From contig JAGWKL010000001.1 in NCBI GenBank assembly GCA_028865345.1, positions 157,489-221,488 on the forward strand: DNA of 64,000 nucleotides, in the 5' to 3' direction. This document shows positions 1,582-63,943 of the stretch, piece after piece. The position numbers and the translations under genes were made by a program. Each line of letters begins with the position of its first letter. Within the stretch, counting starts at the first letter, position 1. Under the pieces are notes generated by a model. That model worked only from the letters and a program-made list of their open reading frames with translations, was not told the DNA's origin and searched no databases. This DNA is from Candidatus Omnitrophota bacterium (GTDB lineage Bacteria; Omnitrophota; Gorgyraeia; Zapsychrales; Fredricksoniimonadaceae).

Positions 1582-1582
1582 A

Positions 1583-2497: not shown

Positions 2498-2503
2498 GTC
2501 TTT

Positions 2504-9331: not shown

Positions 9332-9334
9332 CGT

Positions 9335-12111: not shown

Positions 12112-12122
12112 AAAGATACCCG

Positions 12123-13310: not shown

Positions 13311-13399
13311 GGGAAAATGATTATATCAAATCTTATTAATATTACAATTTATTTTAAGGACGGGGCCCCAGTCTGGGGACAGGCAGCGGGAAAATCCTA

Positions 13400-15013: not shown

Positions 15014-15070
15014 GGGAAAGCATTATAACCTTCTCTTGCGCGTTGGCAAGCGATGATTTAATATGAGACG

Positions 15071-38447: not shown

Positions 38448-38449
38448 GG

Positions 38450-39121: not shown

Positions 39122-39526
39122 CTATGCCTCTTTATAAAGAGATACCTCGTTGGTCTTGACCAGCCATTCCACCAGGTCCCCCTCGGCCAGCCCCAACTTT
39201 TTGGTCGAACGCGTGGTGATGACAGAAACTATTTCTTTGTTTTTATAATCAAGAAAGATCTTGGAGAGGATATCGGACACGTCGATCTTTTTGACCGTTG
39301 CCTGGAATCTGTTGCGCAGGCTGATCAACCCACAGAGGCCCTTGGCGATGGAAACTTCCGTTTCCTTGAACAGCAGAGCAACCTGTCCGCCTTCCTTTAA
39401 ATACCCGGCCGTGGCCGGCGTCTCCAGGACAATGGAAGAAAAAAGATCCCCGTCTACGTCGATGGTAACCAACGACATATGCGGGGAGGTCTCGATTGCA
39501 ACGATCTTGCCGGTCAGTTTATTCAC
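39122..39526 (-). CDS. molybdopterin/molybdate-binding Mop (tandem TOBE) protein
   Basis: 134 aa made of two TOBE repeats (SARNRFQATV-like segment), similar to the ModE C-terminus or molbindin. It lies between modA and modB. Confidence 0.65.
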   Translation of the reverse strand: MNKLTGKIVAIETSPHMSLVTIDVDGDLFSSIVLETPATAGYLKEGGQVALLFKETEVSIAKGLCGLISLRNRFQATVKKIDVSDILSKIFLDYKNKEIVSVITTRSTKKLGLAEGDLVEWLVKTNEVSLYKEA

Positions 39527-40305
39527 TTGGGCAAACTATAGCCGTATTTTTTAAATGTCGCCCGCGCCGGGGCTGAAAACAAAAAATCGTAAAATTTTTT
39601 GGCCTCCGGGGCATGCGGGGCGTATTTTAGCACAACAGCCCCCTGCGCGATAGGCTTATAGCTTCGCGGATCCACTTCAACCCAACGGCCTTTGCCCTTC
39701 ATATTGGGAGAAAGAACAATAGACTCGGCGGTAAAACCGACATCCGCGGCGCCTGTCGTAATAAATTCGTTGGTTTGAGCAATGCTTTCCCCGTAAACCA
39801 GCTTGGGAATGATCCCCGGATACAGATGGGCGTATTTCATGGCGTTGACCGCTTGACGGCCGTACGGCGCCAGTCGGGGATCGGCAAGGGCGATCTTCTT
39901 GACCCCGGCTTCGCCTAAGCCACCCAGGCCCTTGGAGAGGTCCTCATTCCTCATGGTCCAAAGGACCAGGACACCGTACGCATACACCTTGGGCGGCCGC
40001 AAGGACAATCCTTCTTTGAAAACCGCTTCTGGATACTTCATGTCCGCGGATAGAAACACATCAAAGGGTGCTCCGTTGGCAATTTGGGAGGTCAGCTTTC
40101 CTGATGACGCGATCACTGTTTTGACATCGATCCCGGTTTCCCTGGTGAATTGGGCTTTCAGATCATCCAGCGTAAATTGCAGGTTGGCCGCAGCGGCCAC
40201 CGTGATCCCTCCTGCCGCCCTTGCCGGCATGGGCAAAAATCCTAAAAACAACCCTACGATTAATAATTTTTTCATCATCTTCATAAACGGGTCCTTCCTT
40301 TCCAT
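39523..40305 (-). CDS. modA: molybdate ABC transporter periplasmic substrate-binding protein
   Basis: 260 aa with a signal peptide and the ModA fold signature (ITVAAAANLQF..., FDVFLSADMKYPE). Confidence 0.85.
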   Translation of the reverse strand: MERKDPFMKMMKKLLIVGLFLGFLPMPARAAGGITVAAAANLQFTLDDLKAQFTRETGIDVKTVIASSGKLTSQIANGAPFDVFLSADMKYPEAVFKEGLSLRPPKVYAYGVLVLWTMRNEDLSKGLGGLGEAGVKKIALADPRLAPYGRQAVNAMKYAHLYPGIIPKLVYGESIAQTNEFITTGAADVGFTAESIVLSPNMKGKGRWVEVDPRSYKPIAQGAVVLKYAPHAPEAKKFYDFLFSAPARATFKKYGYSLPK

Positions 40306-40308
40306 AAA

Positions 40309-41616
40309 CTAAAATTTAAAGGTCAATTGGGAGTATACCCAGTCGGCATCATCGTCGGCACCGGTATCTCTGACATAACCGCCGCAGAAGAAATGCGCAT
40401 AGCCGGTCTCGAATTTGAGGTTTTTGGTGAAATCATAAAAGAATCTCAGTGACGTTTCTGACCCCACATAATAACTGCGGTGCCCGCTGGTCATTGTTCT
40501 TAGCGCCGTACCGGACGAATCGTACCAAGAATCATTCTTACTTTGCAGCCAGAAAAAATCGATCTGCGGCTTAAAACGAAGCTTCTTCGTCGGTGAAAAT
40601 ACAACATTCAATTCCGGGTTGCGCATATTTTCCCAGCGGAAAAAATCCATCTCCCCGTAAGGCTCATGGACGGTCTGGTAAAGAGGGACAAACGTGTTGC
40701 TGACATTCCCATGGGGGGACTTGTTCCCGGACGCTTCATCATAGGAAAGATTGACCCTGGGGCTCCAGGCCCAACTATGAAGGTCCTTTTCGATATTGGC
40801 ATGAAACGCATAAGCCTTGATTTCTTTTGTGCCGGTGATGGCGCTGCCCGTACGTCCCCATTGATAAGGGACCTCCACATCCAAACTGGTCGTGGGCGTC
40901 AATTTCAACTTGATACGAGCTCCGGCTGTCTCGCGATGGATATCGTTGGTGCCCCTGGTGTCATCCTGGTTGAGAAAATACCATTCGATCAAAGGGGAAA
41001 CAGCATTCTTCTGCCATCCGCTGTAAATCCCGGAAAGGAGCTCATGGCCGTTGGAAATATTAAATTTCTCATTGCGGTATTGGACGTTCTGTCCGTAAAG
41101 AAGGTCCGAATATAATCCGTCGTGATGGTAATGGATGACCGCCCCGTCCCAGGAACGGACCGCGTTCGACCAGGTCGGCGAGGCGATCAACCGCTTTGCC
41201 CCGTAATTCATTTCCTGACGGCCCATCTTCACATCAAAATCCGAACCTGCCAATTTGTAAAAGTCCACGAAAGCCTGGTGCAGGTCAAAACTGTCGGTCT
41301 GGCCTGAAACAGCCTTGGTCAAATAAGGCCAGTCCCTGGCATCCAGCCCTTCCACGAAAACTCGGGCGATCTTGTTCAAATATTCATCTTCCAGATCAGC
41401 GGCAGCGTTGAGTTTAAGACGGTTGAAAAATTGCGTGGCGTTGTCTTTCCTGCTTTCATTAAAATTAAAGTTATACCGGTATTCATACCGTAACCTCTCT
41501 TGGCCCCCAATCTTATAATCCCAATGCAGATATTGCCCCCCGTCGTCGGCCAATGCGGGTATTGCCAGCGGCACCAGGACGATCAATACTGCTAAAACCT
41601 GATGAAAGCCCCTCAT
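40309..41616 (-). CDS. outer-membrane beta-barrel porin encoded directly upstream of modA (possible oxyanion-specific porin)
   Basis: 435 aa with a signal peptide MRGFHQVLAVLIVLVPLAIPALA and alternating amphipathic beta-strands. The C-terminal ...YSQLTFKF ends in the aromatic residue typical of OMPs. An AGGGAGGAG SD is present. Confidence 0.5.
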   Translation of the reverse strand: MRGFHQVLAVLIVLVPLAIPALADDGGQYLHWDYKIGGQERLRYEYRYNFNFNESRKDNATQFFNRLKLNAAADLEDEYLNKIARVFVEGLDARDWPYLTKAVSGQTDSFDLHQAFVDFYKLAGSDFDVKMGRQEMNYGAKRLIASPTWSNAVRSWDGAVIHYHHDGLYSDLLYGQNVQYRNEKFNISNGHELLSGIYSGWQKNAVSPLIEWYFLNQDDTRGTNDIHRETAGARIKLKLTPTTSLDVEVPYQWGRTGSAITGTKEIKAYAFHANIEKDLHSWAWSPRVNLSYDEASGNKSPHGNVSNTFVPLYQTVHEPYGEMDFFRWENMRNPELNVVFSPTKKLRFKPQIDFFWLQSKNDSWYDSSGTALRTMTSGHRSYYVGSETSLRFFYDFTKNLKFETGYAHFFCGGYVRDTGADDDADWVYSQLTFKF

Positions 41617-51143: not shown

Positions 51144-53933
51144 TTATTTGTACCCGAAGATCATGGTAAAAATAATGCACACGACCAAAACGAGCCCAAG
51201 GCTCAGGGCCGTCCAGCCGAAGATCCGGATGGCCAGAATTTTCCCCGGCGACAAAGGCTCTGCCAAATTCTTTTCGAGTTCGCCGCGGGCGACCAAGGCT
51301 TCATATTCCTTGGGCCGTTCGCGCTTTAAATCCTCGATGGACATGCGTCCGGTAAAGATCACCGTGTCCATAGGAAATTTCTCCGGCCTGAAATGGGTGT
51401 TGAAGAAATGCACCGTAAAAATAAACCCGGCAGCCAGCAAAGCCTCATCGCTGTGGACGATGGTGGCCACATTGATGACCCATCCGGGCAATACATGCGT
51501 GAAGGCTTCGGGAAACCAAAGCATCAATCCCGAGGTACCGATGACCATGACCCCCCAAAGCACGGCAAAATAATCAAATTTTTCCCAATATGTCCACCGC
51601 CCGTATTGCGGATATGGCCCTTTGCCCATGTACCATTTCACTGTGACTAAGAATTCACGCCAGTCTTTTTTTGTAAAAAGAATGGTATCGGGTCCGAAAA
51701 GCATCTCTTTGAAACTTCTTTTCTCAAGTCGTTTTTGGAGAAAGACCTGCCTCAAATGCGCAAAGAAGATGCCCAAAAGGGTCACCGCGGCACAACGGTG
51801 CAGGAACCCTGAAACCGCATAGCCGCCCAAAAGCTTCGAGATGAACAGCGCCCACGGCGTGTACGAAAATTTCAGCGTCATACCGGTGATCGTCAAGGTC
51901 AGGAAGCTGCAGATCATGATGATATGGAGGACCCGGTAAAATACAGGGAAACGCACATATTGTTTTTCCGTCGAGACAATATGTTTTTGAGGATAAAGCC
52001 TTCTCATTTCCAGGGATTTGGGCAGCCACAAAAGCGTATGGAAAAGGCTGACGCTGAATGTCCCCACCAGTAAAGCGGTCATGGCCCAAAAAGTCCAGAA
52101 TATCCAAGGGTATTTCTTGGGGTCATGGTGGGTGGCGTGGGTCAAATAACCGGCAAAACGCCTGTTGGCGCCCGCGTGGCACTTTTGACATGTATGGACG
52201 ATGTTCCAGTAACTCAAGGTCGATCGGGGATCTGTCACAGGAAAGATCTCATGGGACCCGTGGCAATCCTGGCATTTAGCGGCTTTCGCATACCCGAGTT
52301 TAGAAATTTTTCCATGCACAGTCTGGAAATAGGTCGAGGCGATCGCCTGATGGCATTTGCCGCACGTATTCATAATATCGAATCTAAAGGCGTTCTCGTC
52401 CGTCCTTTTAATGGTGTGCGCGGTATGACAATCATTGCAGGCAGGCAGTCGGGCCGAATCCTTGTGCCGGCCTATGGCATGGACGCTTTTCATGTACTTT
52501 TCATAAACGCCCTGATGGCATTGGGAGCAGGTCCTGGCAATGTTCCTGCGGTTCACGGTGGACCGCGGATCAGCGGCGGGCAGTTGTTCGTGGGCGGTGT
52601 GACAGCTGACACAGGTGGCGGCCACGACCAGCCCGCTTTCCAAAAGCCCCTGGCCATGGATGCTTTCAATGTAATTCGTGGTGATATTATGTTCCGGGCC
52701 TTTGTAAAGTACCGCCGCCTTATGACCTTCCCTGTGGCAGCGGGCGCAAAGAGCAGGGATATTGGTCGGATAGGTGGGCGACCTGATGTCCTTGTGGGAC
52801 AAAATTCCGTGGGTGCCGTGGCATACCCTGCACGACGGGGCATTAGGATTTCCCTGGCTCCATAATTTCCCGTGCGTCCCTCGCCGGTACGCCGCCACTT
52901 GTTGGCTGTGGCAGATGGAACAATCCACTCTTTTAGTGATCGTCTCACAGGGCCGGGTGTGGGAGGCAGAGACCTGGGTATGGCACTGGGCGCAGGCGAC
53001 CTTGGCATGGACTGAACCGTTGAATTGCTGTTCGTCGATGAAAAGCGACCGGTGGTCTTTGGAAGAGACGATTGTTTTCTTGCCGTGGCAGGTCAGGCAA
53101 TCTTGGTTGGCTTCTCCCATTGGATAATAGACCCGGCGTATCTTGTGGGGCTGGTGGCAATCCACGCACACAGGGATGACCTGCGGGTTCTTTTCCCATA
53201 ACTTGCCGTTGATGATCTTGCGATGGACACGCTCAATCTGGCTGTGGCATTGCAGGCAGGTCTTGACGATGTTGGCACGGGCAATGGACGAACGCGGGTC
53301 GGTGAAAGGAAGAATATCATGGGCCCGATGACAGGAGGCGCAGGTAGCGGTGACGTTGAGCCCTTTTTTAAGAAGAGCCTCCCCGTGCATGCTGTCGGAG
53401 TAATTTTCCAATATATGCTTCTCGGGGATCTGCCTTTGTTGCGAAACCGGCTTGCCCTCGCTATGGCAGGAACCGCAGACAAAAGGAATGTGAAACGGCG
53501 CCACCGTCGAATTTGGGTCTTTTACGGGAAGAATATAGTGGTTGCCGTGGCAATTGAAGCATTCCGGGGCCAGTTTGTCCCCGCGTGCCCGTGCCCGGCC
53601 GTGAATGCTGTCGGAAAACAGCGCCTCCTGCCGTGTGTGGCAGCGCCCGCAATCCACCAGGGCCACTGCCGTCTTATGCGGGAAATCACTGCCGACTAAA
53701 TCCGTATGACAATCCGTACAAAGTTGTTTGCCGTGAACAGACGCCTGGAATTTATCCTGGTCAACGAACGGCGCCTGGGTCGCATCTCCATGGCAGGCCA
53801 GACAATCGTCATTGGTCGCAGCGCTTTTGACGGCCGCAGGAGGACTTGCGGGGGCGCTCTGGGCATGAACGGTCCATGGTACGGTCAGCAGTACCAGTAT
53901 AAGAATAAAAGATTTTGGAATTCGGACGCCCAT
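51144..53933 (-). CDS. fusion of a periplasmic 19-haem cytochrome c domain with a C-terminal polytopic dihaem cytochrome-b-type membrane domain (CbcL-like architecture)
   Basis: The start is taken at MGVRIPKSFILILVLLTVPWTVHA, the signal-peptide Met at 53933; the ORF-track N-terminus overlaps the upstream gene. There are 19 CxxCH motifs, from CLACH to CQKCH. About 6 C-terminal TM helices carry intramembrane His (FHTLL, LHII, FLHRC, FAHL, IVHSD, TVHFF), as in HydC/FdnI/PhsC-type cytochrome b. Confidence 0.8.
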   Translation of the reverse strand: MGVRIPKSFILILVLLTVPWTVHAQSAPASPPAAVKSAATNDDCLACHGDATQAPFVDQDKFQASVHGKQLCTDCHTDLVGSDFPHKTAVALVDCGRCHTRQEALFSDSIHGRARARGDKLAPECFNCHGNHYILPVKDPNSTVAPFHIPFVCGSCHSEGKPVSQQRQIPEKHILENYSDSMHGEALLKKGLNVTATCASCHRAHDILPFTDPRSSIARANIVKTCLQCHSQIERVHRKIINGKLWEKNPQVIPVCVDCHQPHKIRRVYYPMGEANQDCLTCHGKKTIVSSKDHRSLFIDEQQFNGSVHAKVACAQCHTQVSASHTRPCETITKRVDCSICHSQQVAAYRRGTHGKLWSQGNPNAPSCRVCHGTHGILSHKDIRSPTYPTNIPALCARCHREGHKAAVLYKGPEHNITTNYIESIHGQGLLESGLVVAATCVSCHTAHEQLPAADPRSTVNRRNIARTCSQCHQGVYEKYMKSVHAIGRHKDSARLPACNDCHTAHTIKRTDENAFRFDIMNTCGKCHQAIASTYFQTVHGKISKLGYAKAAKCQDCHGSHEIFPVTDPRSTLSYWNIVHTCQKCHAGANRRFAGYLTHATHHDPKKYPWIFWTFWAMTALLVGTFSVSLFHTLLWLPKSLEMRRLYPQKHIVSTEKQYVRFPVFYRVLHIIMICSFLTLTITGMTLKFSYTPWALFISKLLGGYAVSGFLHRCAAVTLLGIFFAHLRQVFLQKRLEKRSFKEMLFGPDTILFTKKDWREFLVTVKWYMGKGPYPQYGRWTYWEKFDYFAVLWGVMVIGTSGLMLWFPEAFTHVLPGWVINVATIVHSDEALLAAGFIFTVHFFNTHFRPEKFPMDTVIFTGRMSIEDLKRERPKEYEALVARGELEKNLAEPLSPGKILAIRIFGWTALSLGLVLVVCIIFTMIFGYK

Positions 53934-53935
53934 AC

Positions 53936-55759
53936 CTAATCTCTGCTGCGGCCATGAAGCCACGACCAATTGCCCGGATAAACATCGGGATCGAAAATGA
54001 CGAAATATCCGTGCCAGATGATAATGGTGACACAGGCCAGAATGGCCTCGTACAAATGGACCGTCCTGACCACATCATAAAACCATTTGGGAAACATCCT
54101 TAAAAACCAAACTTCACTGAACATCAATACACCGGTCGCCACCATCACCAGGGAACCCCACAGCAGGGCCCAGTACTCTAATTTCTGCACATAACTATAA
54201 ACACCGTCGGGCTTTGGCTTGTCTTTACACCGGCCGAAATAATATTGGAAGCCCTGAAAAAGCTGTGTAAAATCCTCTTTTCTGATGCTTAAAGCTTTTA
54301 ACTGCCAGAGGCCTTTTTTCGTGAAAAACAAATAATAGAGGTGATAGAGTGCCAGGGCACAAAATACAAGGCCTGTGCCGCGATGCCCCCATCTCAACCA
54401 GTCATTGTGCCCGAAAAACATGAAGGACCACCAGGTTTGCGGGTACTTCAGGGAAAACCCGGTGTAGGCCAAAATGATAAAGGTCGCCGTTAAAATAAAA
54501 TGCTGACATCGTTCATTGAAACCCATGCACTCCCTGCCCTGCTGCAGAGAATGGCGGTAATGCGCCGCAGCTTTCTTGGAAAAATCAAGAACGTTATGCA
54601 ATAAGAGAATGCCCGAGACAAAAAAGATCAGGAAAACATAAAAGCACCGCACCCAATCGTTGACAGGATTGCCTCCGTTCTTAAGCCCCCCATGGACCAA
54701 ACCTTGCGCCACCCGCGCCCCGATGCCCGGGTGGCATTGACCGCAGGTCTTCTCCAGGTTCCTGGGGTTGATCGTCGAACGCGGATCCGATGACGGAAGG
54801 ATCTCATGCGCCCCGTGGCAGGACGCGCAATTGGCCGCGGTCAGCGTCCCCTGCTGCATCGCAAGACCGTGATAGCTTTGCATATAGCTACCCAATACAT
54901 TGCCGGGAAGGCCGTAGGCGGCATTGATGCGTTGGGCTGCATGGCATTGACCGCAGGTCTGCGGGATGTTCGCCGAGGAGACCATCGACGATGCCCTTTG
55001 GACCGCTTCGATGTTGTGCTCTCCATGGCAATCGGTACAGACAGGGGTGTCCCTGCTGCCCGCGGCCAATGCCTGCCCGTGGATTCCGCGAGCATACTGC
55101 TTGTATTCTTCCTTATGGCACTTACCGCAAGTCTCGGGGATATTGACCCAGTATAAGCGGGACAATCTATTGGCGGGCTTATTAATGTCGTGCGCCCCAT
55201 GGCAATCGCTGCACACGGCGGCCTTCATGTCCGTCCCTTTTTGAAACTCAAGCCCGTGAACGCTCTTCAAATAGGTCTTGCCTTCCTTGGTCAAAAGAGC
55301 GCTGTGTAGTTTCTGATGGCATCCCGAGCACGTGAGAGGGATGTTCTTGCGGTTGACCGGTGAACGAGGGTCATCGGCCTCTAATATCGCGTGAGGGTCC
55401 CCGTGGCAGGCCGTGCAGGAAGTCTCCGACGAAAAGACTGCGGCCATGCCCCTGGCATGGTCGCTGCGGCTAACGCCCAAGGCTTCTTTCTCATGACAAA
55501 CGGCGCAATCGACTTTTCGGAGTTTGTCAGCGTGAGGAAGCCCCTTGATGTCCTTATGGCAATCGATGCAGTCTAACGTTTGATGGACAGAATTGTTAAA
55601 GGCCTTTGGGTCAATAGCCGGGGCATTGTCCGCATGGCAGCTAAGGCAATCCTGGTTGGTCAGCTTAACTGGCGCTTGGGGAGCTTGCTGGGCCGTGGCA
55701 CAAACGCTCACCAGAACCGATAAAAAAAAGGTCCCTGAAAGACCTATGGTGTTTTTCAT
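53936..55759 (-). CDS. paralogous fusion of an 11-haem cytochrome c with a cytochrome-b-type membrane domain
   Basis: Signal peptide MKNTIGLSGTFFLSVLVSVCATAQQ; the start is taken there, and the ORF-track start at 55843 overlaps the upstream gene. There are 11 CxxCH motifs, then a C-terminal 5-6 TM domain homologous in pattern to that of the 19-haem protein (WVRCFYVFLIFFVSG..., His in TMs). Confidence 0.8.
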   Translation of the reverse strand: MKNTIGLSGTFFLSVLVSVCATAQQAPQAPVKLTNQDCLSCHADNAPAIDPKAFNNSVHQTLDCIDCHKDIKGLPHADKLRKVDCAVCHEKEALGVSRSDHARGMAAVFSSETSCTACHGDPHAILEADDPRSPVNRKNIPLTCSGCHQKLHSALLTKEGKTYLKSVHGLEFQKGTDMKAAVCSDCHGAHDINKPANRLSRLYWVNIPETCGKCHKEEYKQYARGIHGQALAAGSRDTPVCTDCHGEHNIEAVQRASSMVSSANIPQTCGQCHAAQRINAAYGLPGNVLGSYMQSYHGLAMQQGTLTAANCASCHGAHEILPSSDPRSTINPRNLEKTCGQCHPGIGARVAQGLVHGGLKNGGNPVNDWVRCFYVFLIFFVSGILLLHNVLDFSKKAAAHYRHSLQQGRECMGFNERCQHFILTATFIILAYTGFSLKYPQTWWSFMFFGHNDWLRWGHRGTGLVFCALALYHLYYLFFTKKGLWQLKALSIRKEDFTQLFQGFQYYFGRCKDKPKPDGVYSYVQKLEYWALLWGSLVMVATGVLMFSEVWFLRMFPKWFYDVVRTVHLYEAILACVTIIIWHGYFVIFDPDVYPGNWSWLHGRSRD

Positions 55760-55815
55760 CAAACCGCTAACCGTCATATGCGCCCGTAAATAATCCCAGA
55801 CGTATGCCGCCTGTT

Positions 55816-57324
55816 TCATCCCCCCGTATGACAGTCCGAGCAATTGGTCGTCTTCCAGGAATCGTCATCATAAAACGGATGCTGGAATTCCAGGCCGTTG
55901 ATGCTCTTTTGCACGGCGGTGCCGCTGCCCTGTTCGACGATGATATGGCAAAGAGTGCATTTGCGCTCAATGACTTTTCCATCGGCGGACTTATGCTCAT
56001 TGTCGTGGCACCGGAAACACCCCCGTGAAATCATGTGCCCGATGTTGTCCGGATAATCGTCCCAACGCGATTTCATTTCCGGAAAGAAATTTTGTTCGTA
56101 CAGCAGGGTGATTTCTTCAACAGCCTGCTCAACGGCAGGGCGGTTCTTGGTGTAATAAGCAAAGTACTTTTGTTTGTAATAGTCCGTTAATTTCGAACGG
56201 ATCTGCTTTTCGGCCTGACTTGTAGAATTATATTTATCGCCGAGAACTTCGACCCCCTCCGACTTTATCATGGGAATTGATGGACTGATCTTCCCCTGGG
56301 CCAGGGCCCGGTTCATCAAGACATCAGGCGCTTCAAAGCGGTGGGCGGCGCGGTTATGGCAATCGATGCAATCCATTCTCCTGATCTTGTCCTGAGGGGG
56401 ATTGACTTTTTTGTAAGGAGAGTTCTTGGACGTATAGATCGTGACCTTCCCCGATTTGTCCACCGTCTTGACCCAGCTGATATGCTGGCGTTTGGCGTCG
56501 TCGGCGACGTAGAAGATCTCATTATTGAAATACATGTGCGCGTGAATGCCGGCCTCGCCGTTTTTCCCGTTCCCGACACGCATCAACAGGTTGATTCTCC
56601 AAGGCGGGGTTTGGCTGGGATCATCCGCGTAATAAACCTTGTTGAGCAAAATGGCGCTGAAAGGCTTACCCGGCCAATGGCACTGTTCACAGATCTCCTT
56701 GGCCGGTCTCAAGGTGTTCAGGGGAGCCGGGGTCGGACGCTGATATCTGCCGTCAAAAGTCTTAACGAGCATTTTGGTCCCCGCCACTTTATAACGCAGG
56801 TACCAGTTGGCACCGGAACCCACATGGCACTCAACACACCTGACCCGTTCGTGGGGAGAATGGTTGTGCGTGTCATATTCGGGCTTCATGATCTGATGGC
56901 AGGTGAGCCCGCAAAATTGGGTCGATTCCGTATAATTAAAAGCCCTATAGGAACCGATGGCGGTCATGACCAGCAGGGTGACCGTGCCGATCATGAAGAT
57001 AACAACAGCGTTTTGGTGGGTCGCTAAAGAAAGATCGATGACGATGGGCTTGGGCTTTCCTTCTTTCGAGCCGCGCAAAAGCCGCCCGCGTTTCAAGGAG
57101 GCCCCTATCGGGATCAGTATAAGCCCGACAATGAGAAATGGCGGCAAGAAGACATAGGTGAGCAGCCCTAAATAAATGCTGGACTTAGGGGAAGCAAAAT
57201 CGATCGCGAACAAAAAGAGCTCGCAAAGAAGCACGAACAAAGACAGCCCCACACCGATATAGGTAATGTTGTTGTAAAAGCTATCGGAGAACCGCTGTTT
57301 CTTCTTTTTGAGCTCATTGTCCAT
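55816..57324 (-). CDS. inner-membrane multihaem cytochrome c with 3 N-terminal TM helices and 7 haem motifs (ImcH / NapC-NirT-CymA-like role)
   Basis: 502 aa with three hydrophobic helices in the first 130 aa. There are six CxxCH motifs (CVECH, CEQCH, CIDCH, CFRCH, CTLCH, CSDCH) and one CX3CH (FCGLTCH). Confidence 0.7.
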   Translation of the reverse strand: MDNELKKKKQRFSDSFYNNITYIGVGLSLFVLLCELFLFAIDFASPKSSIYLGLLTYVFLPPFLIVGLILIPIGASLKRGRLLRGSKEGKPKPIVIDLSLATHQNAVVIFMIGTVTLLVMTAIGSYRAFNYTESTQFCGLTCHQIMKPEYDTHNHSPHERVRCVECHVGSGANWYLRYKVAGTKMLVKTFDGRYQRPTPAPLNTLRPAKEICEQCHWPGKPFSAILLNKVYYADDPSQTPPWRINLLMRVGNGKNGEAGIHAHMYFNNEIFYVADDAKRQHISWVKTVDKSGKVTIYTSKNSPYKKVNPPQDKIRRMDCIDCHNRAAHRFEAPDVLMNRALAQGKISPSIPMIKSEGVEVLGDKYNSTSQAEKQIRSKLTDYYKQKYFAYYTKNRPAVEQAVEEITLLYEQNFFPEMKSRWDDYPDNIGHMISRGCFRCHDNEHKSADGKVIERKCTLCHIIVEQGSGTAVQKSINGLEFQHPFYDDDSWKTTNCSDCHTGG

Positions 57325-57329
57325 TCGCC

Positions 57330-59495
57330 CTACCAGTTAAAGCCTAATTTCATCAAAAAGATATTGGCTGAATAATTCCCCGACCCCACCGTGGGATTGT
57401 CCTTATAAGCCGCGTATTCATACTGGGGGCCTATTTTCAACCACTTGTGCCAGGTCCAGTCAAGGCTGGTAGTATAATTGAACATCTTAAAGTCAGACCC
57501 ATAAGGCACGCCTATGCCGGAATCGACATAATTGTTTGAGATCGTATAGGACGCGGTATTGGTCCAAACCCAATTCTCCGTTGGACTATACGTGGTCGAA
57601 AAAAGGAAGCTGTTGTCCCCTGAATTAAAATCGGGGATATAGGAAGGCCCGCCCTCGGCCGATGTCCCTGCCGAAGATGCCGCGATCGTCCTGACATAAT
57701 TTTCCACGTGCGAATACGAGAGCATCAATAAAAGCGTATCGATGGGCTGCAGCGTGATATCGTAGGTGAATGCTGATGTCAGCATATGATTTTCAGAGAT
57801 GTTATAATTCCCGTCTGCAGGGAGAGGATCTGAAGAACCGCCGGCCGATGGATCCAACTGAGGATTATAGACCGTATCGGAGAATTGGTATTTCAATGAG
57901 TTTTGCAGCCAGTGAAACGGTTTCCAGGTCAGTGTCGAAGTTTCGTCCACCCCTTTTTCCCTTAAGGAACTCATCAGAACAAGCCCGCTGGCAGAAGGAT
58001 TTGAAATTGTATCATATCCGCTGTACTGATCATGGACCCTGGCCTGGGTCGAAAAAATAATAAACCGGTTGGGATAAGTCCTGGCTCCCACGGTCCATGA
58101 TTCTTTCTGAGTTCTATTGAGCCTCTCCAAGTTAGAAAAAGTATTACTCGTTGAGCCCCCGGGAAGAGCAGTATAGGACTCATCGACCCAGTTCCTGTCC
58201 TGCTGCCATTCACCGTCCATATACACGCTGGTATGGGGAATGCCATAAAACCGCAGCCCCACATGCTCCCCGGTTTGGTCTTCACGGTTCTTCATACTGG
58301 CGTCATCTTCCCCTGTAGTACCAGCTGCATAATAGGCGGAATCACCCTCACTACCCTTATGCTCATATTTGACGTCGGTAAGAAAATCCACATTTTTCGT
58401 CAAATTGGAATTCAGGTTTCCCACCAAGACATGGTCATCTTCCGAAGCACTTGAATAATTCCATCCGGAGGTGCCAGACGTTACAGGGGTATAAACAACG
58501 CCGTCTGTAGATGAGAATTCCGCCTGCTGCATCAGGTCCGTGTCATGGATATGGTTATAATGGTATCCGACCGCGGCGTAGGTGTTGTCGTTGAGCATCC
58601 ATTTTTCCGCCCTCACCCCTGCGCCGAAGAGCTTGGCATTCGGGGATTCATTATATGTATTAAGTTGATTGGGGGTTGAAGTGGTGTCATTAAGATACTG
58701 CATATACTGGACATCATTATTGTAATCAAATTCCGCTTTTTGATCTGCCTTGATGGTCACTCCCGCGATCTTCTTCTTTTCTTTCAGGGTGATGGTGTCC
58801 ACATAACTATTTAACGACTCCCATGCAGGGCCGATTTTCCTTTCGGCGCCGGATGCGGTCTGTCCGGCCGCATAGACCGGGGTCCATTCTAAAAGCGACT
58901 TATCGCCGTTCTTGGTATTGTGCTCATAGGCTATGTCCAAATAAGGATCGCTGATCGGCCCTAAGCCTGCTTCCAATTTAAAATAACTGATGTCCATCTG
59001 TAAAGCAGGACTGTTAGCCTGGTACCCTTGATATTGAGAGGAAATTGAACCATAATTCGTATAACTGGCGGGAGGAGGATTACCGGCGGTGTTAGTAACG
59101 ACCTGGTTCGGATAAAACCCGCCTGTCCCATCATACCATTTTCTAAAGGCGTTATAGTCTACCCGCAAAAAGCCCACGTCCCCGTCCTGCAGGACCAAAT
59201 GGCCGGTGCCCGTGTCGGTCCCCGGGAATGCACTGCCTTGCACTTCCAAGGATATATTCTTATTAATATCTTTAACAAATGAGATATTGCTTATTCCTCC
59301 ATTGTTGTCCGTATTGGCCTGCATCCAGTTAAGGGCTTCGAACTTGCCCACATTGCCCTTGACGCTGGCATATTGTACCGGTTCAAGAGTGATGCTAAAA
59401 GGCGTGGTATCCGCATCCTGGGCCAATGCCAGATATCCCACCTGCGTCATGTACGCTGCCACCATGATTGAGAGTAAAATACGAAAGATTTTCAT
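57330..59495 (-). CDS. large outer-membrane beta-barrel protein (MtrB/MtoB/PioB-like porin of a porin-cytochrome conduit)
   Basis: 721 aa with signal peptide MKIFRILLSIMVAAYMTQVGYLALAQ. It is rich in Gly/Thr/Asn/Tyr with alternating amphipathic strands. The C-terminal ...LMKLGFNW ends in an aromatic residue. It is flanked by multihaem cytochromes. Confidence 0.6.
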   Translation of the reverse strand: MKIFRILLSIMVAAYMTQVGYLALAQDADTTPFSITLEPVQYASVKGNVGKFEALNWMQANTDNNGGISNISFVKDINKNISLEVQGSAFPGTDTGTGHLVLQDGDVGFLRVDYNAFRKWYDGTGGFYPNQVVTNTAGNPPPASYTNYGSISSQYQGYQANSPALQMDISYFKLEAGLGPISDPYLDIAYEHNTKNGDKSLLEWTPVYAAGQTASGAERKIGPAWESLNSYVDTITLKEKKKIAGVTIKADQKAEFDYNNDVQYMQYLNDTTSTPNQLNTYNESPNAKLFGAGVRAEKWMLNDNTYAAVGYHYNHIHDTDLMQQAEFSSTDGVVYTPVTSGTSGWNYSSASEDDHVLVGNLNSNLTKNVDFLTDVKYEHKGSEGDSAYYAAGTTGEDDASMKNREDQTGEHVGLRFYGIPHTSVYMDGEWQQDRNWVDESYTALPGGSTSNTFSNLERLNRTQKESWTVGARTYPNRFIIFSTQARVHDQYSGYDTISNPSASGLVLMSSLREKGVDETSTLTWKPFHWLQNSLKYQFSDTVYNPQLDPSAGGSSDPLPADGNYNISENHMLTSAFTYDITLQPIDTLLLMLSYSHVENYVRTIAASSAGTSAEGGPSYIPDFNSGDNSFLFSTTYSPTENWVWTNTASYTISNNYVDSGIGVPYGSDFKMFNYTTSLDWTWHKWLKIGPQYEYAAYKDNPTVGSGNYSANIFLMKLGFNW

Positions 59496-59515
59496 GTCTT
59501 GTTCCTCTCTCTAAG

Positions 59516-60298
59516 TTAATAACGAAAATAATGATCAAAATTAGACCCATGAGGCGCAGAATGACAACCCGCGCTCCAGCATGTTCCATAAACAAAATCA
59601 TTATAAATATGCTGAGCACTGGTACCGTTCTGGCCATGGCCATAAGGGAAATTATTCATGGCATGGCAGCGTAAACACAGGTTATAATCCCGCGCGATCA
59701 GCATTTTGTCATTAACCGACCCGTGCACCTGGTGGCAGGACGTACAACCGTCCTTCATGGCATCATGCTCCCAGATATACGGCCCTCGTTTGTCGCTGTG
59801 GCATTTGAAACAGACATCGTTAACACCGTTCTCTGACGTAGCCGTCCAGGGACGGACATCTATCCCATGGGCGTCGTGGCAGTCGGTGCAGCTCATCTTA
59901 CCTTCCAGGACAGGATGATGGTAAGGCAGACGGAATTGCATCTTTTTATCGGTATGGCAGGTAAAACAGACCTCCGGATCATTTTTGGGGTTGATGATAT
60001 TGTTCGTCCCTCCCGAGGCATCCACGTGGATACTGCCCGGACCATGGCAGGTCTCGCAATCCTGGGCGCCGGTGGTTTCGTTCTTGATATGGAGACGCCC
60101 ATGCGTCGAAAGCTTGTATTCACGGCCTTCTTTTTCATGACATGTCACGCAGGTATCCATGCCCACATACGTGGCTTTCTTCAAATACAACATCTCGTTG
60201 ACCTTGTTCTGATCCGCCCGGGCAACTGAAATTCCCCCGGCCCAAAACAATCCCATTGCCAGCCCCAAGAGAACCATCCACGATTTTTGACCGATCAT
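59516..60298 (-). CDS. periplasmic 8-haem cytochrome c (MtrA/MtoA/PioA-like)
   Basis: 260 aa with signal peptide. There are seven CxxCH motifs (CVTCH, CETCH, CFTCH, CTDCH, CFKCH, CTSCH, CLRCH) plus one CX4CH (CWSAGCH). The haem density is about one per 30 aa. Confidence 0.8.
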   Translation of the reverse strand: MIGQKSWMVLLGLAMGLFWAGGISVARADQNKVNEMLYLKKATYVGMDTCVTCHEKEGREYKLSTHGRLHIKNETTGAQDCETCHGPGSIHVDASGGTNNIINPKNDPEVCFTCHTDKKMQFRLPYHHPVLEGKMSCTDCHDAHGIDVRPWTATSENGVNDVCFKCHSDKRGPYIWEHDAMKDGCTSCHQVHGSVNDKMLIARDYNLCLRCHAMNNFPYGHGQNGTSAQHIYNDFVYGTCWSAGCHSAPHGSNFDHYFRY

Positions 60299-60362
60299 AA
60301 GATGCCTTTCTGTTTATCCGTAAGATACTTGCCTTCCCTAAAAATAAGGTTTACACCTGTCC

Positions 60363-60632
60363 TTACTTCTTAATCGGCCCCACTTGTTTATACGTATCAG
60401 CGGTTGGCTTCTGAGCACCTGCCGCTTTGATGACGGCCTTGCCATAATCATTGGGATCATGCTGGCCGTCCGCTTTTTTAGGCATTCTATCCACGTGACA
60501 ATCGATGCACTTGGGCCTTGAATCAGGATAGGCTGCCTTGTAGGCCTTGATCTGCGCAAAATCAGCCCTGGCTGCCGCGCTCCAAAGGACCAGGCCAAAA
60601 GTGAAGCTTAAAACGACCGCTGTTTTCATCAT
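60363..60632 (-). CDS. small periplasmic monohaem cytochrome c (MtoD-like position)
   Basis: Signal peptide MMKTAVVLSFTFGLVLWSAAARA and a single CIDCH. The start is uncertain; the ORF track extends to 60662, which would overlap the hemA stop by 4 nt. Confidence 0.55.
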   Translation of the reverse strand: MMKTAVVLSFTFGLVLWSAAARADFAQIKAYKAAYPDSRPKCIDCHVDRMPKKADGQHDPNDYGKAVIKAAGAQKPTADTYKQVGPIKK

Positions 60633-60658
60633 AGTTCTCATAAGCTCCTCCTTAATGT

Positions 60659-61702
60659 TCACATCTGAGACATTTGATTTATCAAAGAAACCTTTTCCAG
60701 GGCCCCGAAGAATTCACCAATTTTCTGGGCGATCATTTCTTCGACCGTTCCCACCGCCGACAGGCGCTTTCGGGTGTTGCCTTCGACGATCCTGTCCAAA
60801 TCATCCACGGTCACAAGCGTGACATTTGTCATACCGCCCACCTCGGGAGCGACATTGCGGGGCATGGAAATGTCGATCAATACCAACGGCCGCGCTGTCC
60901 TTGTTTTCATGACCGTATCAACCAGGTCACGTTCGATCAAATGGTGAGTGCAGCTGGCCGAGCAAATGCACACATCCGCCTGGGACAAAACTTCCCTCAT
61001 TTCCCAAAAGCCAACGGCTGTACCGCCGCTTTCACGGGCCAGTTCCTGGGCATTTTCCATTGTCCTGTTCATGATATAAATGTCGGCGACACCCTTTTTA
61101 GCCAATTGCTCAACCGCCAGACGTCCCATTTTTCCCGAACCCACGATCAACACGGTCTTGCCTTGCAGCGTGCCCAGGACATTTTGCGCCATCACGACCG
61201 ACGCCCAGCTTACCGATGAGCCGCCGAAATCGATGGACGTCTCATGGCGCGCTTTCTTGCCGGTCTGCACAACAAGATTGGAAAGGATATTGAAAGTTTT
61301 GCCCATCATGCCGTGCGCGCGTGAAAATTCAAACGCTTCCTTGACCTGCCCCAGGATCTGTTTTTCCCCGATGATCAGGGAATCCAGGCCCGTGGTCACG
61401 CGCAACAAATGCTCCACGGCTTGACTGCCGGTGAAGGTATAGAAATGGCCCGTTAAATCTGCCTGCGGAGGGATTTTCTTGATCTTAAAAATTGCATCAA
61501 TGAGCGCTTGAGGCCGGCCCTCAATGCTGTTAGCGTAAATCTCCGTTCGATTACAGGTCGATAAAACAAACGCTTCCGCAATGCGGGGATCATTTTGAAG
61601 CTCGCTTAAAAGCAATTCGCGCTCGATGGGCTGCAGGTAAAATTTCTCTCTGACATCTATTGAGGAAGTTTTATGATTTATACCGACGGCCAGAATATTC
61701 AT
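60659..61702 (-). CDS. hemA: glutamyl-tRNA reductase
   Basis: 347 aa with the catalytic-Cys motif VLSTCNRTEIY, a Rossmann NADPH domain (VLIVGSGKMGRLA) and a C-terminal dimerisation helix. Its start overlaps the stop of the receiver gene (ATGA). Confidence 0.9.
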   Translation of the reverse strand: MNILAVGINHKTSSIDVREKFYLQPIERELLLSELQNDPRIAEAFVLSTCNRTEIYANSIEGRPQALIDAIFKIKKIPPQADLTGHFYTFTGSQAVEHLLRVTTGLDSLIIGEKQILGQVKEAFEFSRAHGMMGKTFNILSNLVVQTGKKARHETSIDFGGSSVSWASVVMAQNVLGTLQGKTVLIVGSGKMGRLAVEQLAKKGVADIYIMNRTMENAQELARESGGTAVGFWEMREVLSQADVCICSASCTHHLIERDLVDTVMKTRTARPLVLIDISMPRNVAPEVGGMTNVTLVTVDDLDRIVEGNTRKRLSAVGTVEEMIAQKIGEFFGALEKVSLINQMSQM

Positions 61703-62079
61703 AGGTTGCCTTTGGGCGACAAAAGACGGTTGATCGTCGGAACAAGGCGGCGATCCAGGTCGCTTTTGTCGATAAAATCCTCCACATCCTTATGCCTTCC
61801 TAAGTCCTTCATGTCCTGCTTGGCATACATGGTCAAAATAATGATGCCGCAGGAATCATCCTGGCGTTTGATAAGGGAGGCCAGCTCCAGGCCGCTGATG
61901 CCCCTCGTTAAATGGATATCGATAATCACAACCTTAGGACGCCGCCTCAGGGCGATATCAATGCCCTCCTGGCCTGTCACGGCTTCCAAAATGTCCGCTT
62001 TGACGCCTTTCATAAGGATGAATCTCTTCATCGCTTCCCGGAACTCTTTGTGATCTTCGACGATCAATATGTTCTCCAT
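61699..62079 (-). CDS. stand-alone CheY-like response-regulator receiver protein
   Basis: 126 aa. The REC fold begins MENILIVEDH, with the phospho-acceptor Asp in VVIIDIHL and the conserved T/K. Confidence 0.85.
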   Translation of the reverse strand: MENILIVEDHKEFREAMKRFILMKGVKADILEAVTGQEGIDIALRRRPKVVIIDIHLTRGISGLELASLIKRQDDSCGIIILTMYAKQDMKDLGRHKDVEDFIDKSDLDRRLVPTINRLLSPKGNL

Positions 62080-62183
62080 AAATTTCTCATCGTTAAGGCA
62101 CGCTTCGCACTAATTAGAAGATACAGGAAGAGGGAAGGAATGAAAATTCGGTGAACTACTTAAGGAGGTACGTAGTATCACTT

Positions 62184-62215
62184 AAAAAGAGAACCTGTCC
62201 CCAGAACCGGGGACA
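62184..62215 (-). terminator. candidate intrinsic terminator after the histidine kinase / LuxR-RR pair
   Basis: The minus-strand transcript would form the hairpin UGUCCCC-gguucu-GGGGACA followed by GGUUCUCUUUUUAAG. It lies 20 nt after the LuxR-RR stop. Confidence 0.45.
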
Positions 62216-62234
62216 AAAGTGCTGCGGATTCGGG

Positions 62235-62879
62235 CTAAATCAACCCTTTGGCAATAGCGTATTTGACAAGGCCGGCGGCAGTCTTAATGCCCAGCTTGTG
62301 GATCAGCCGGCTGCGGTGGGTCTCAACGGTGCGGATGCTGATTTTTAATGAGGAGGCGATGTTCTTATTGGCGGCCCCCTTGACGATCATGGCCAGGACC
62401 TGCTTCTCACGGTTGGTCAATATCTGCAGGGAAGGGACATCGCCTCCTTCAATGGAACGCACATACTGCTCGGTGATGTATTCGGAAATCGCCGGTGAAA
62501 CAAAATTCTTGCCCTTCATAACAAGTTTAATGGCCATCACCAGCTGATCAAAAGCGCCGTCTTTGAGAATGTAGCCGCTGGCGCCGTGGGCCATCGCATA
62601 TTTGAAATGGTCGATGTCTTTTTGCATGGTCAATATCAGGACCTTTAATTTGGGATACCTTTGGCGCAATTCTTTGAGCGTCTCCAGGCCGTCCATTTGA
62701 GGCATGGACAGGTCCAATACCACACAATCGGTTCTGGCGGTTTTCAGCTTTTCCAGAAGGACTTCGCCGTTACCCGCCTCAGCCACCACTTTAAAGTCCT
62801 GGCTTTTGTCCAATAAACCCCTTAAACCCGCACGCAACATGGCATGGTCATCGGCGAGGATCACCCGGATTGCGCTCAT
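62235..62879 (-). CDS. NarL/FixJ-family response regulator (REC + LuxR-type HTH)
   Basis: 214 aa. The REC domain is RVILADDHAMLRAGL...DCVVLDLSMP. The LuxR HTH is LTNREKQVLAMIVKGAANKNIASSLKISIRTVETHRSRLIHKLG. Confidence 0.9.
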   Translation of the reverse strand: MSAIRVILADDHAMLRAGLRGLLDKSQDFKVVAEAGNGEVLLEKLKTARTDCVVLDLSMPQMDGLETLKELRQRYPKLKVLILTMQKDIDHFKYAMAHGASGYILKDGAFDQLVMAIKLVMKGKNFVSPAISEYITEQYVRSIEGGDVPSLQILTNREKQVLAMIVKGAANKNIASSLKISIRTVETHRSRLIHKLGIKTAAGLVKYAIAKGLI

Positions 62880-63943
62880 ATCTTCGTTCCCTTCACTGGA
62901 ATGTTAATAAGGATATCCGTCCCTTTTTTCAATGTCGACTGCAACTCTATGCGACCGCCTAAAAGCATGACCCTTTCCTTCATAGTCACCAGGCCCAGGC
63001 CCGTGGACCGGGAAGTCGCCACAAACCCTTTGCCGTTGTCGGAAATGCGGATCTTCAACTGGTCTTTGGCCACACGGACATCGACTCTGACGAGGCTTGC
63101 GGCGGCATGCTTGATGATATTGCCCATGGCCTCCTGGATGATACGGTATATATTAATGGCTTCGGCGTTAAACTTCAAGCTATCGATCTTATTGTGACGG
63201 AACTCTATCTCCAGGGACTTGGAGCGGTTGATTTCGTTGAACATCAATCTCAAGGCGGTGGTGAGTCCAAGCGTATCCAGCGTTGATGGCCTCATGCGCA
63301 TGGCCAGGTTGCGGGACTTTTCAATGATGCTGCCCAAATAGGCTATGATCTTCTCATGCTCTTTGCGCTCCTGGGAATTTCTTTTGGGATCCGGCAACCA
63401 TGCCGACTGGATCAGGATCTTCAAGGTGGCCAGCGATTGCCCCAGATCGTCATGGATGTCCCGCGCGATGCGGTTGGCTTCGCTCTCCTGCGCCTGGATG
63501 ATGCGCTGGGGGATGGCCTTGATCTCCTCTTCCATCAATTTGCGCGGGGTTATTTCCGTGCGGATGGAAACGTATTGGAACGGCTTGCCTTTATTGTTAA
63601 GAAAGGGAACGATGGTCGTATCCACCCAATAAATCGAGCCGTCCTTGGCCTTGTTGCGGATCTCGCCTTGCCACACCTTGCCATGGGCGATCGTACGCCA
63701 CAAGTCCCGAAAAAATTCCTTAGAATGGTAACCGGAATTGATGATCCGGTGGTCCCGGCCTAAAAGCTCTTGGCGGGTATACTTGGAAATCTCGCAAAAT
63801 TTATCATTGGCGTAGACGATCTTGCCGGTCTGGTCGGTAATGGCCACGATCGATGACACATCCAGGGCAAACTTAATATCCGTCAGTTCCTTGAGGGTCT
63901 TCTCGAGGGCGTATCTTTGGTAAAACGAACCGGGTATTGGCAT
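62876..63943 (-). CDS. cytoplasmic PAS-domain sensor histidine kinase (HisKA_3 / NarX-DegS type)
   Basis: 355 aa. An N-terminal PAS domain (SIVAITDQTGKIVYANDKFCEISKYTRQELLGRDHRII) is followed by a HisKA_3 H-box IARDIHDDLGQSL and HATPase_c motifs (ISDNGKGF, GLGLVTMKER). Its stop overlaps the LuxR-RR start. Confidence 0.85.
   Translation of the reverse strand: MPIPGSFYQRYALEKTLKELTDIKFALDVSSIVAITDQTGKIVYANDKFCEISKYTRQELLGRDHRIINSGYHSKEFFRDLWRTIAHGKVWQGEIRNKAKDGSIYWVDTTIVPFLNNKGKPFQYVSIRTEITPRKLMEEEIKAIPQRIIQAQESEANRIARDIHDDLGQSLATLKILIQSAWLPDPKRNSQERKEHEKIIAYLGSIIEKSRNLAMRMRPSTLDTLGLTTALRLMFNEINRSKSLEIEFRHNKIDSLKFNAEAINIYRIIQEAMGNIIKHAAASLVRVDVRVAKDQLKIRISDNGKGFVATSRSTGLGLVTMKERVMLLGGRIELQSTLKKGTDILINIPVKGTKI

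Follow-up and report, generated by a model that had tools for sequence, protein, structure and literature searches.

The closest described relatives of the gene cluster considered here are the cytochrome-porin pairs MtrAB, MtoAB and PioAB at the outer membrane, and the quinone-pool cytochromes ImcH and CbcL at the inner membrane. The barrel of MtrB consists of 26 strands, whereas TonB-dependent receptors have 22. ImcH proteins combine three N-terminal transmembrane helices, an adjacent CX3CH motif, six CXXCH motifs and a NapC/NirT-like segment in about 495–519 amino acids (aa), and have been linked so far solely to quinol oxidation in Fe(III) reducers, while members of the CbcL/MtoC/MtrH family carry 3–23 c-type motifs and a C-terminal HydC/FdnI-like dihaem b domain with about six transmembrane segments in 416–1034 aa (PMC6295460). 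Zhong and Shi (2018) counted three ImcH and three CbcL homologues in Omnitrophica, and found neither mtrAB nor mtoAB adjacent to imcH (PMC6295460). The present analysis concerns a cytochrome operon on the minus strand of a stretch of 64,000 nucleotides (nt) from a Candidatus Omnitrophota bacterium (assembly GCA_028865345.1, contig JAGWKL010000001.1, positions 157,489 to 221,488), hereafter the window, and all statements on gene content refer to these 64 kb.

By homology, the cluster encodes an MtrAB-type outer-membrane pair, namely an 8-haem cytochrome and a remote relative of MtrB, together with three quinone-pool cytochromes of known types in one tight operon. The products probably form an MtrAB-type conduit that spans the envelope and is coupled to the quinone pool. 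The fuller statement, in which this quinone-coupled conduit also carries electrons outward, is put forward with modest confidence.

The cytochrome-porin pair

Judged by its alignments, the 260-aa cytochrome is a shortened homologue of MtrA that lacks two central haems. Chain A of the structure 6R2Q was matched at an E-value of 2.5e-34, with residues 101–254 lying on residues 173–325 of MtrA, and the protein scored 163.6 bits (E 5.8e-48) against TIGR03508, the model of DmsE, MtrA, MtoA and PioA, and 179.7 bits against NF041028, the GSU2203 decahaem family. Although chain A is listed as 'Cystathionine beta-synthase', apparently through an error of the depositor or the database, it was taken as MtrA, because the entry is entitled 'Structure of the Mtr complex' and the sequence in the alignment is that of a decahaem cytochrome. 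As a further reference, MtrA and MtrB were taken from an authentic mtrCAB cluster located on a replicon of Photobacterium, whose MtrB matches PF11854 at E 9e-153. This MtrA is 25% identical to the 260-aa protein (E 9e-30), and a single 47-residue gap in the latter drops two central haem motifs. The eight haem sites that are present, seven CXXCH motifs and a terminal CWSAGCH (CX4CH), are invariant in 25 homologues, and eight additional histidines are conserved across the same sequences, seven of them invariantly and H127 in at least 90%. Because these histidines suffice for all eight haems, the pattern points to bis-histidine ligation of every haem, and to electron-transfer haems without an open catalytic site.

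A preliminary description of this DNA had proposed that the protein belongs with MtrA and MtoA, and the superfamily assignment stands: the best matches are to MtrA and to decahaem families, whereas those to the NrfB-like, c7 or c3 families of Pfam and NCBIfam are weaker, NrfB and c7 polymers having been raised as the competing assignment. The notion of a regular Mto/Pio core did not survive, since the cytochrome stays under the curated cut-offs (192.2 bits for TIGR03508 and 325 for NF041028), as does the barrel under that of its own family, and eight haem sites were counted where the TIGR03508 family calls for ten CXXCH motifs. The 8-haem family would fall outside the decahaem clade, and proteins of similar kind, about 250–270 aa in length, make up more than 1100 clusters. 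An AlphaFold2 model of the cytochrome, built on the 25-sequence alignment, reached a predicted local distance difference test (pLDDT) score of 37 and was unusable.

A signal peptide is present in the 721-aa protein and haem motifs are absent; profile comparison places it, as a distant relative, in the MtrB/PioB superfamily but outside the Pfam model. When Pfam and NCBIfam models were run against it, PF11854 gave no match at E-values up to 0.1, nor did PF11854 match five of its porin relatives at E-values up to 0.01, and nothing was found in the PDB either by phmmer or by a hidden Markov model of the 57-sequence family. The link to MtrB emerged only with a profile of the MtrB/PioB family. Comparison of the 57 family members with 27 PF11854 proteins by hhalign gave a probability of 99.3% (E 3.7e-20) over 606 columns, which run end to end (37–694 against 43–703), while reversed and block-shuffled controls remained at probabilities of at most 4.5% and scores of at most 33, as opposed to 176. 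An hhalign comparison with a single MtrB sequence yielded 36.6% only, was local and out of register, and was discarded.

The structural model of the barrel agrees with the profile match. AlphaFold predicts 26 strands of at least seven residues, in a barrel with the width for a haem wire and no plug (mean pLDDT 74.9), and the top Foldseek match of this model is MtrB (E 1.8e-10, template modelling scores 0.59/0.65), with receptors at 0.46 or below. The barrel had been proposed as the counterpart of MtrB, MtoB and PioB, which is upheld in the sense of a remote homologue, and the contrary assignment to TonB-dependent receptors or other outer-membrane protein families finds neither a plug nor a Pfam match to such receptors. 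A profile search of 1.84 billion representatives assigned 731 cluster representatives to the porin family.

The pair is found well beyond the window. The 8-haem protein occurs in at least 361 species-level genomes, the best 80 of which belong to Omnitrophota, Verrucomicrobiota and a few other groups, and in a comparative set of 87 loci from Omnitrophota, Verrucomicrobiota, Eisenbacteria and Binatia, the porin follows the 8-haem gene in 77, the exceptions being mostly contig ends or overlaps in the calling of open reading frames (ORFs). Porins of other phyla are 25–29% identical to that of the window (E 1e-58 to 1e-84).

Operon partners and related loci

The small cytochrome c99 is encoded by an ORF of 99 aa if read from a GTG (60662..60363); the ATG at 60641, with AAGGAGG ahead of it, is the likely start and gives 92 aa, and homologues begin at the same position. 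Its single haem motif is CIDCH, and it has a signal peptide, which makes it a small exported monohaem protein whose gene accompanies the cytochrome-porin pair. No Pfam family matched it at E-values up to 0.1, NCBIfam returned one noise-level match only (E 0.049, 13 bits), and no class I cytochrome c was among its PDB matches at E-values up to 10. An assignment to MtoD or to the class I cytochromes was dropped, as there is no detectable similarity in any of the three databases; the suggestion that the monohaem protein mirrors MtoD is thus correct for position and size, but not for sequence. The family of c99 comprises 31 sequences with the conserved motif K.YK.A[YF]P...KC..CH....PKK..G.H..N.YG, and because a histidine past the haem motif is kept in at least 80% of them, bis-histidine ligation is likely for this haem as well.

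Genes of the c99 type occupy one of two places, ahead of the 8-haem gene or immediately ahead of imcH, the latter in five loci (L009, L011, L042, L043 and L045). In two cases, P0160 (382 aa) and a gene of locus L022 (7452-8648), a c99-like domain is joined to the N-terminus of the 8-haem protein. Fusions of this type occur in an Omnitrophica WOR_2 genome among others, and provide a Rosetta-stone link between two genes that are separate in the window. Moreover, one or two PSCyt1 domains (PF07635, 'Planctomycete cytochrome C') are found at the N-terminus of four porin relatives (P0242, P0251, P0258 and P0271); these fusions are 790–994 aa long, and in loci L060, L066, L069, L077 and L081 a separate 8-haem gene still precedes the porin. 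Taken together, both kinds of fusion argue for physical contact between the monohaem protein and the conduit.

The 502-aa protein is of the ImcH type by architecture and motif spacing. It contains CGLTCH (CX3CH) at residue 138 and six CXXCH motifs, with hydrophobic segments at residues 19–47, 48–78 and 94–126, and it matches Pfam Cytochrom_NNT, a NapC/NirT-like segment, at E 9.6e-9. Its length equals that of the Omnitrophica ImcH homologues, the positions of its motifs and transmembrane segments match those of one of them, OGX39360 (PMC6295460 supplement), and it is 48% identical to the product of the gene at the same position in an Eisenbacteria locus. The 635-aa and 941-aa proteins have the features of CbcL/MtoC/MtrH-type fusions and are assigned to this family. 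The former has a periplasmic domain with 11 CXXCH motifs, followed by a Ni_hydr_CYTB match at residues 444–618 (E 1e-14), and its NCBIfam matches are to formate dehydrogenase gamma and hydrogenase cytochrome b. The latter has 19 CXXCH motifs, hydrophobic segments from residue 629 to 941 and a Ni_hydr_CYTB match (E 6.5e-7) of 29.7 bits, just short of the 30.1 cut-off, and its motif spacing matches that of the Omnitrophica CbcL homologue OGW82754 (PMC6295460 supplement).

The genes are arranged in the order hemA-c99-mh260-porin-imcH-cbcL-cbcL, with successive gaps of 17, 64, 20, 5, -4 and 2 nt (Table 1). The ATG of c99 thus lies 17 nt past the hemA stop codon, the porin starts 20 nt downstream of the 8-haem gene, and the start codon of the ImcH-type gene is 5 nt past the porin stop. 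Because the first CbcL-type gene overlaps the ImcH-type stop as ATGA (55816-55819), and the second starts 2 nt past the preceding stop (53933-53938), translational coupling of the three inner-membrane cytochromes is suggested. All three ORFs named in the preliminary description were recovered, and its unit of 57330-60662 does hold three genes; this span proved too short, as three more cytochrome genes extend the cluster to 51144 and hemA precedes it. The operon products would bind 46 c-type haems and probably four b-type haems, and the five c-type cytochrome genes of the cluster are the only ones in the entire window. Accordingly, no gene for an MtrC/OmcA-type surface cytochrome was found in the operon or elsewhere in the 64 kb, which confirms, and extends to the whole window, the earlier observation that the operon lacks an outer-surface decahaem gene.

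Table 1. Genes of the cytochrome cluster, listed in the direction of transcription (window coordinates)
Gene or product	Coordinates	Strand	Evidence and remarks
hemA (glutamyl-tRNA reductase)	60659..61702	-	Pfam GlutR_N E 4.7e-44, Shikimate_DH E 7.8e-38
Small monohaem cytochrome c (c99), 92 aa	60363..60641	-	one CXXCH; signal peptide; Shine-Dalgarno sequence and ATG
8-haem MtrA-homologous cytochrome c (mh260), 260 aa	59516..60298	-	seven CXXCH and one CX4CH; 6R2Q_A match
Outer-membrane beta-barrel, remote MtrB/PioB-superfamily porin, 721 aa	57330..59495	-	profile-profile comparison, Foldseek, model
ImcH-type inner-membrane cytochrome, 502 aa	55816..57324	-	three N-terminal transmembrane helices; CX3CH and six CXXCH
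CbcL/MtoC/MtrH-type fusion, 635 aa, 11 haems	53936..55819	-	ORF extends to TTG 55843; likely start ATG 55819
Second CbcL/MtoC/MtrH-type fusion, 941 aa, 19 haems	51144..53933	-	ORF extends to TTG 53969; likely start ATG 53933

The product of hemA catalyzes the first committed step of haem synthesis, and its co-transcription with cytochrome genes looks like a built-in cofactor supply. In the window, hemA either opens the transcription unit or immediately precedes it, and in L001, L003, L004 and L005 it likewise lies immediately ahead of the module.

Across the comparative set, an ImcH-type gene is present in 40 of the 87 loci, often in the order porin, small monohaem, ImcH, and a CbcL-type gene in 11. 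The inner-membrane module is interchangeable among loci, because in L001, a related Omnitrophota locus, the porin is followed by genes for a tetrahaem NapC-like cytochrome, an NrfC-like Fe-S protein, an NrfD-like membrane protein and another four-haem cytochrome (12099-15194), and ImcH-type and CbcL-type genes appear further along. The NapC/NrfC/NrfD-like set recalls the link of Aeromonas NetBCD to Mtr. Loci of Verrucomicrobiota often carry an additional 9-haem protein of 570–945 aa upstream, of which the Omnitrophota operon of the window has no counterpart. In some Omnitrophota loci, 9-haem proteins of about 410 aa are encoded after the porin; they were considered as surface cytochromes and rejected, since they have a C-terminal transmembrane helix and look periplasmic and membrane-anchored, and none of this type is encoded in the window. 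A distant branch of the cytochrome-porin pair is represented by L002 and L007, where the porin is 27–29% identical to that of the window and a 173-174-aa Aq_1264_TM protein is encoded ahead. In the surroundings of these two loci, which lack ImcH, a multicopper oxidase, a CarboxypepD_reg-like protein, a hemerythrin and a Crp-type regulator are encoded; this setting is unlike that of the window, and may be tied to oxidation. Finally, L014, L039, L041 and L043, as well as proteins tagged HQL12-HQL15, stem from the magnetotactic genomes compiled by Lin et al. (2020), all of which have magnetosome genes and 20 of which belong to Omnitrophota, dominant in acidic peat.

With respect to the neighborhood of the operon, the genes nrdDG of the strictly anaerobic ribonucleotide reductase adjoin the cytochrome cluster on its downstream side. 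Directly upstream of hemA (61699-63943, minus strand), a PAS-HisKA_3 kinase, a GerE/LuxR-type response regulator and a single-domain response regulator are encoded; this order of kinase and response regulators recurs in L001, L004 and L005, and these proteins are candidate regulators of the cytochrome operon. Oxidase, nitrate reductase, carbon-fixation and magnetosome genes were looked for in the rest of the window, and none was found. Further away, NuoK-like, NuoH-like and NuoL/Mrp-like membrane subunits are encoded at the window edge, beside a phosphotransferase system EIIA-HTH protein (943-4483, minus strand), as parts of complex I or of an energy-converting hydrogenase-type module that could supply reduced quinone to the conduit. 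A glycogen block (5685-13310, minus strand) comprises a GH13 branching/amylase-type enzyme, a GH57 branching enzyme, a DUF4912 protein and a glycogen synthase-like GT4/GT5 protein, which suggests a storage-forming, self-sufficient cell rather than a minimal symbiont. In addition, a set of ATP-binding cassette (ABC) transporter genes (ATPase, permease and SBP_bac_11), a 134-aa protein and then a 435-aa Alginate_exp-type barrel are encoded at 37575-41616 (minus strand), and by eye this set looks like one for the uptake of molybdate or tungstate that includes a porin of its own.

Proposed electron path and alternative explanations

By analogy with the MtrCAB structure, the 8-haem chain would run through the barrel and expose its last haem on the outside. 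Because two central haems are missing, the wire would be roughly 15 Å shorter than MtrA and would protrude little into the periplasm. Gene order, the fusions of c99 to the 8-haem protein and those of PSCyt1 to the porin suggest that c99 may act as a periplasmic adaptor or shuttle between this wire and the quinol:cytochrome c oxidoreductases of the ImcH and CbcL types. With no surface cytochrome encoded in the window, a soluble or colloidal redox partner would be most likely, be it an Fe(III) chelate, a humic or peat quinone or a shuttle. The flow of electrons is most likely outward, as part of an anaerobic respiration, and the acceptor and the direction are the least certain step of this scheme.

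Outward flow is preferred, with some reserve, to Fe(II) oxidation or electron uptake, for which a tentative case can be made. The preference derives from ImcH, which is so far tied only to reducers, from nrdDG next door, and from the NetBCD-like module in a relative. Outward transfer to peat organic matter has also been proposed for porin-multihaem clusters of Verrucomicrobiota in a 2026 preprint (bioRxiv 10.64898/2026.05.27.727921); these clusters may include the present cytochrome-porin family, and the proposal is counted in favor of outward flow. Several points weigh against this reading. The direction cannot be read from the sequence, because both MtrAB-type conduits and the CbcL/MtoC family work in either direction (PMC6295460), and the mto cluster of Gallionella ES-2 likewise has no surface cytochrome, but a small monohaem protein and a CbcL/MtoC-type gene (PMC5566968). 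Insertion of the wire into the barrel is drawn from analogy, and c99-type genes are frequent rather than universal, being present in 26 of the 87 loci by sequence and in 33 by generic criteria.

The alternative that survives best, though it is regarded as doubtful, is an inward conduit, in which Fe(II), a mineral, a cathode or a partner cell is oxidized at the exposed haem, and electrons pass through c99 to the CbcL/MtoC types, which reduce quinone. As in MtoAB and PioAB, no surface multihaem cytochrome is found in the operon or in the 64 kb (PMC5566968), and it was this absence that had led the preliminary description to an oxidizing Mto/Pio module; the absence does fit the Mto/Pio analogy, but the presence of ImcH, known so far only from reducers, weakens the inference. 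The small periplasmic monohaem cytochrome occupies the position of MtoD, without being homologous to it, and the two CbcL/MtoC-family genes have their parallel in the mto clusters of Gallionella ES-2 and Dechloromonas. Distant relatives of the pair adjoin multicopper oxidase and iron- or oxygen-related genes (VIT1, hemerythrin), and several close relatives are magnetosome-bearing Omnitrophota of redox gradients. On the other hand, ImcH, which directly follows the porin here and occurs in 40 of the 87 loci, has been implicated solely in quinol oxidation so far, and the nrdDG neighborhood signals anaerobiosis. Furthermore, the uphill flow from Fe(II) to quinone requires a high-potential acceptor branch, none of which is visible in the window, where no oxidase, nitrate reductase or carbon-fixation gene was found.

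A non-respiratory role appears improbable, be it redox chemistry of iron at the surface for uptake or detoxification, for example Fe(III) reduction feeding magnetite or greigite magnetosomes, or electron exchange with a partner or host. It is consistent with the origin of L014, L039, L041, L043 and the HQL12-15 proteins from a magnetosome-bearing genome set, and with VIT1, rubrerythrin and heavy-metal ATPase genes near some loci; many Omnitrophota are inferred to be host-associated, too. Nevertheless, the module is present in at least 361 species-level genomes that are mostly not known to be magnetotactic, many of them Verrucomicrobiota, no magnetosome gene was found in the window, and three quinone-pool cytochromes with 37 c-type haems exceed the needs of an uptake reductase. 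The last explanation, a coincidental gene order in which an NrfB/c3-type periplasmic carrier lies next to a substrate channel or TonB-dependent-like barrel that does not house it, is largely refuted and very unlikely: although Pfam and NCBIfam leave the barrel outside MtrB_PioB and the cytochrome has weaker matches to NrfB-like and c7/c3 families, the barrel lacks a plug domain and a TonB-receptor Pfam match, has the 26 strands of MtrB instead of 22, resembles MtrB in Foldseek (0.59/0.65) more than receptors (at most 0.46) and keeps its end-to-end MtrB/PioB profile match where the controls fail, while the best matches of the cytochrome are MtrA and decahaem families, not NrfB, and the pair is adjacent in 77 of the 87 loci across phyla.

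Significance and comparison with known systems

Omnitrophota, nearly all of them uncultured, abound in peat, groundwater and lake sediments, and a complete path from quinone to the surface, as favored here, would mean that some members of this phylum contribute by respiration to the cycling of iron or humic matter. No description of an 8-haem/remote-MtrB module with a monohaem partner and a linkage to ImcH was found in the literature searched on electron-transfer cytochromes of Omnitrophota, nor in that searched on magnetotactic Omnitrophica. The 8-haem cytochrome is currently annotated as a generic c3-family protein, a CXXCH cytochrome or hypothetical, and because, in addition, family models miss the barrel, surveys by MtrAB, MtoAB or PioAB models will undercount extracellular electron transfer. 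With ImcH encoded next to an outer-membrane conduit and to a candidate for its periplasmic partner, a defined set of three or four proteins becomes available in which ImcH handover and reversal can be studied, and a natural 8-haem wire, together with monohaem fusions to the wire or the porin, bears on the minimum length of a haem wire across the outer membrane. A bolder proposal, which is regarded as rather unlikely, is that of a previously unrecognized, phylum-spanning minimal MtrAB lineage, with an 8-haem wire, a model-invisible barrel and a monohaem adaptor, which is wired to ImcH in Omnitrophota, does without any surface cytochrome and runs inward or reversibly. If true, it would constitute the first ImcH-linked pathway of electron uptake or iron oxidation, and a lithotrophic or iron-cycling role, assigned by nobody so far, for magnetosome-bearing and peat or groundwater Omnitrophota.

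Compared with MtrAB of Shewanella (6R2Q), the cytochrome of the window is homologous to MtrA, with a similar density of residues per haem, the barrel, of about 26 strands, is an MtrB homologue and has MtrB as its best structural match, and the order of cytochrome and porin is the same. The wire differs in having 8 haems instead of 10, the two central ones being deleted, and in its last motif, CX4CH. In addition, the window proteins remain under the family cut-offs, with a barrel that is invisible to PF11854, the operon lacks the MtrC/OmcA-type surface decahaem gene of MtrCAB, and the inner-membrane partners are of the ImcH and CbcL types in place of CymA.

With MtoAB-MtoD of Sideroxydans ES-1 and Gallionella ES-2, which is coupled to CymA or MtoC, and with PioAB of Rhodopseudomonas palustris TIE-1, the operon shares the cytochrome and porin superfamilies, the lack of a surface cytochrome and a small periplasmic monohaem protein, and, in the case of the Gallionella ES-2 mto cluster, inner-membrane cytochromes of the CbcL/MtoC family. 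However, neither class I cytochromes c nor any solved structure show detectable similarity to the monohaem protein of the window, the wire carries 8 haems rather than 10, and an ImcH-type gene directly after the porin is unreported for mto or pio clusters. The hosts differ as well, the window belonging to an anaerobic-looking member of the Omnitrophota, whereas Mto hosts are proteobacterial iron oxidizers.

The EET3/EET4 clusters of Verrucomicrobiota, which were found in peat and are transcribed there, also consist of a porin and an MtrA-like cytochrome with low identity to Mtr components (bioRxiv 10.64898/2026.05.27.727921). Verrucomicrobiota loci in the comparative set, such as the Limisphaerales locus L086, carry the 8-haem and porin families of the window. 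In contrast to the window operon, EET3/EET4 include predicted extracellular multihaem cytochromes, to which the 9-haem protein of 570–945 aa would correspond in the Verrucomicrobiota loci of the comparative set. The window has c99 and the ImcH and CbcL types instead, and the preprint mentions neither Omnitrophota nor ImcH (bioRxiv 10.64898/2026.05.27.727921).

The PSCyt1-porin relatives are similar in outline to Cyc2, in that both are cytochrome-porin fusions, a likeness of layout only; in the window porin itself, no haem domain is fused to the barrel, which resembles MtrB in its roughly 26 strands and whose 8-haem partner is encoded by a gene of its own. As for Geobacter sulfurreducens, the ImcH-type protein shares with its namesake three transmembrane helices, one CX3CH and six CXXCH motifs and a length of about 500 aa, and the CbcL types are likewise fusions of a multihaem cytochrome with a cytochrome b. 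OmaB of the Geobacter Pcc conduit has 8 haems, a number equal to that of the window wire, while OmbB is a smaller barrel of about 20 strands compared with about 26 in the MtrB-like window porin. The Pcc conduit OmaB-OmbB-OmcB includes a lipoprotein cytochrome of the OmcB type that the window lacks, and the imcH, cbcL and conduit genes, which are scattered in Geobacter, are united in one operon in the window.

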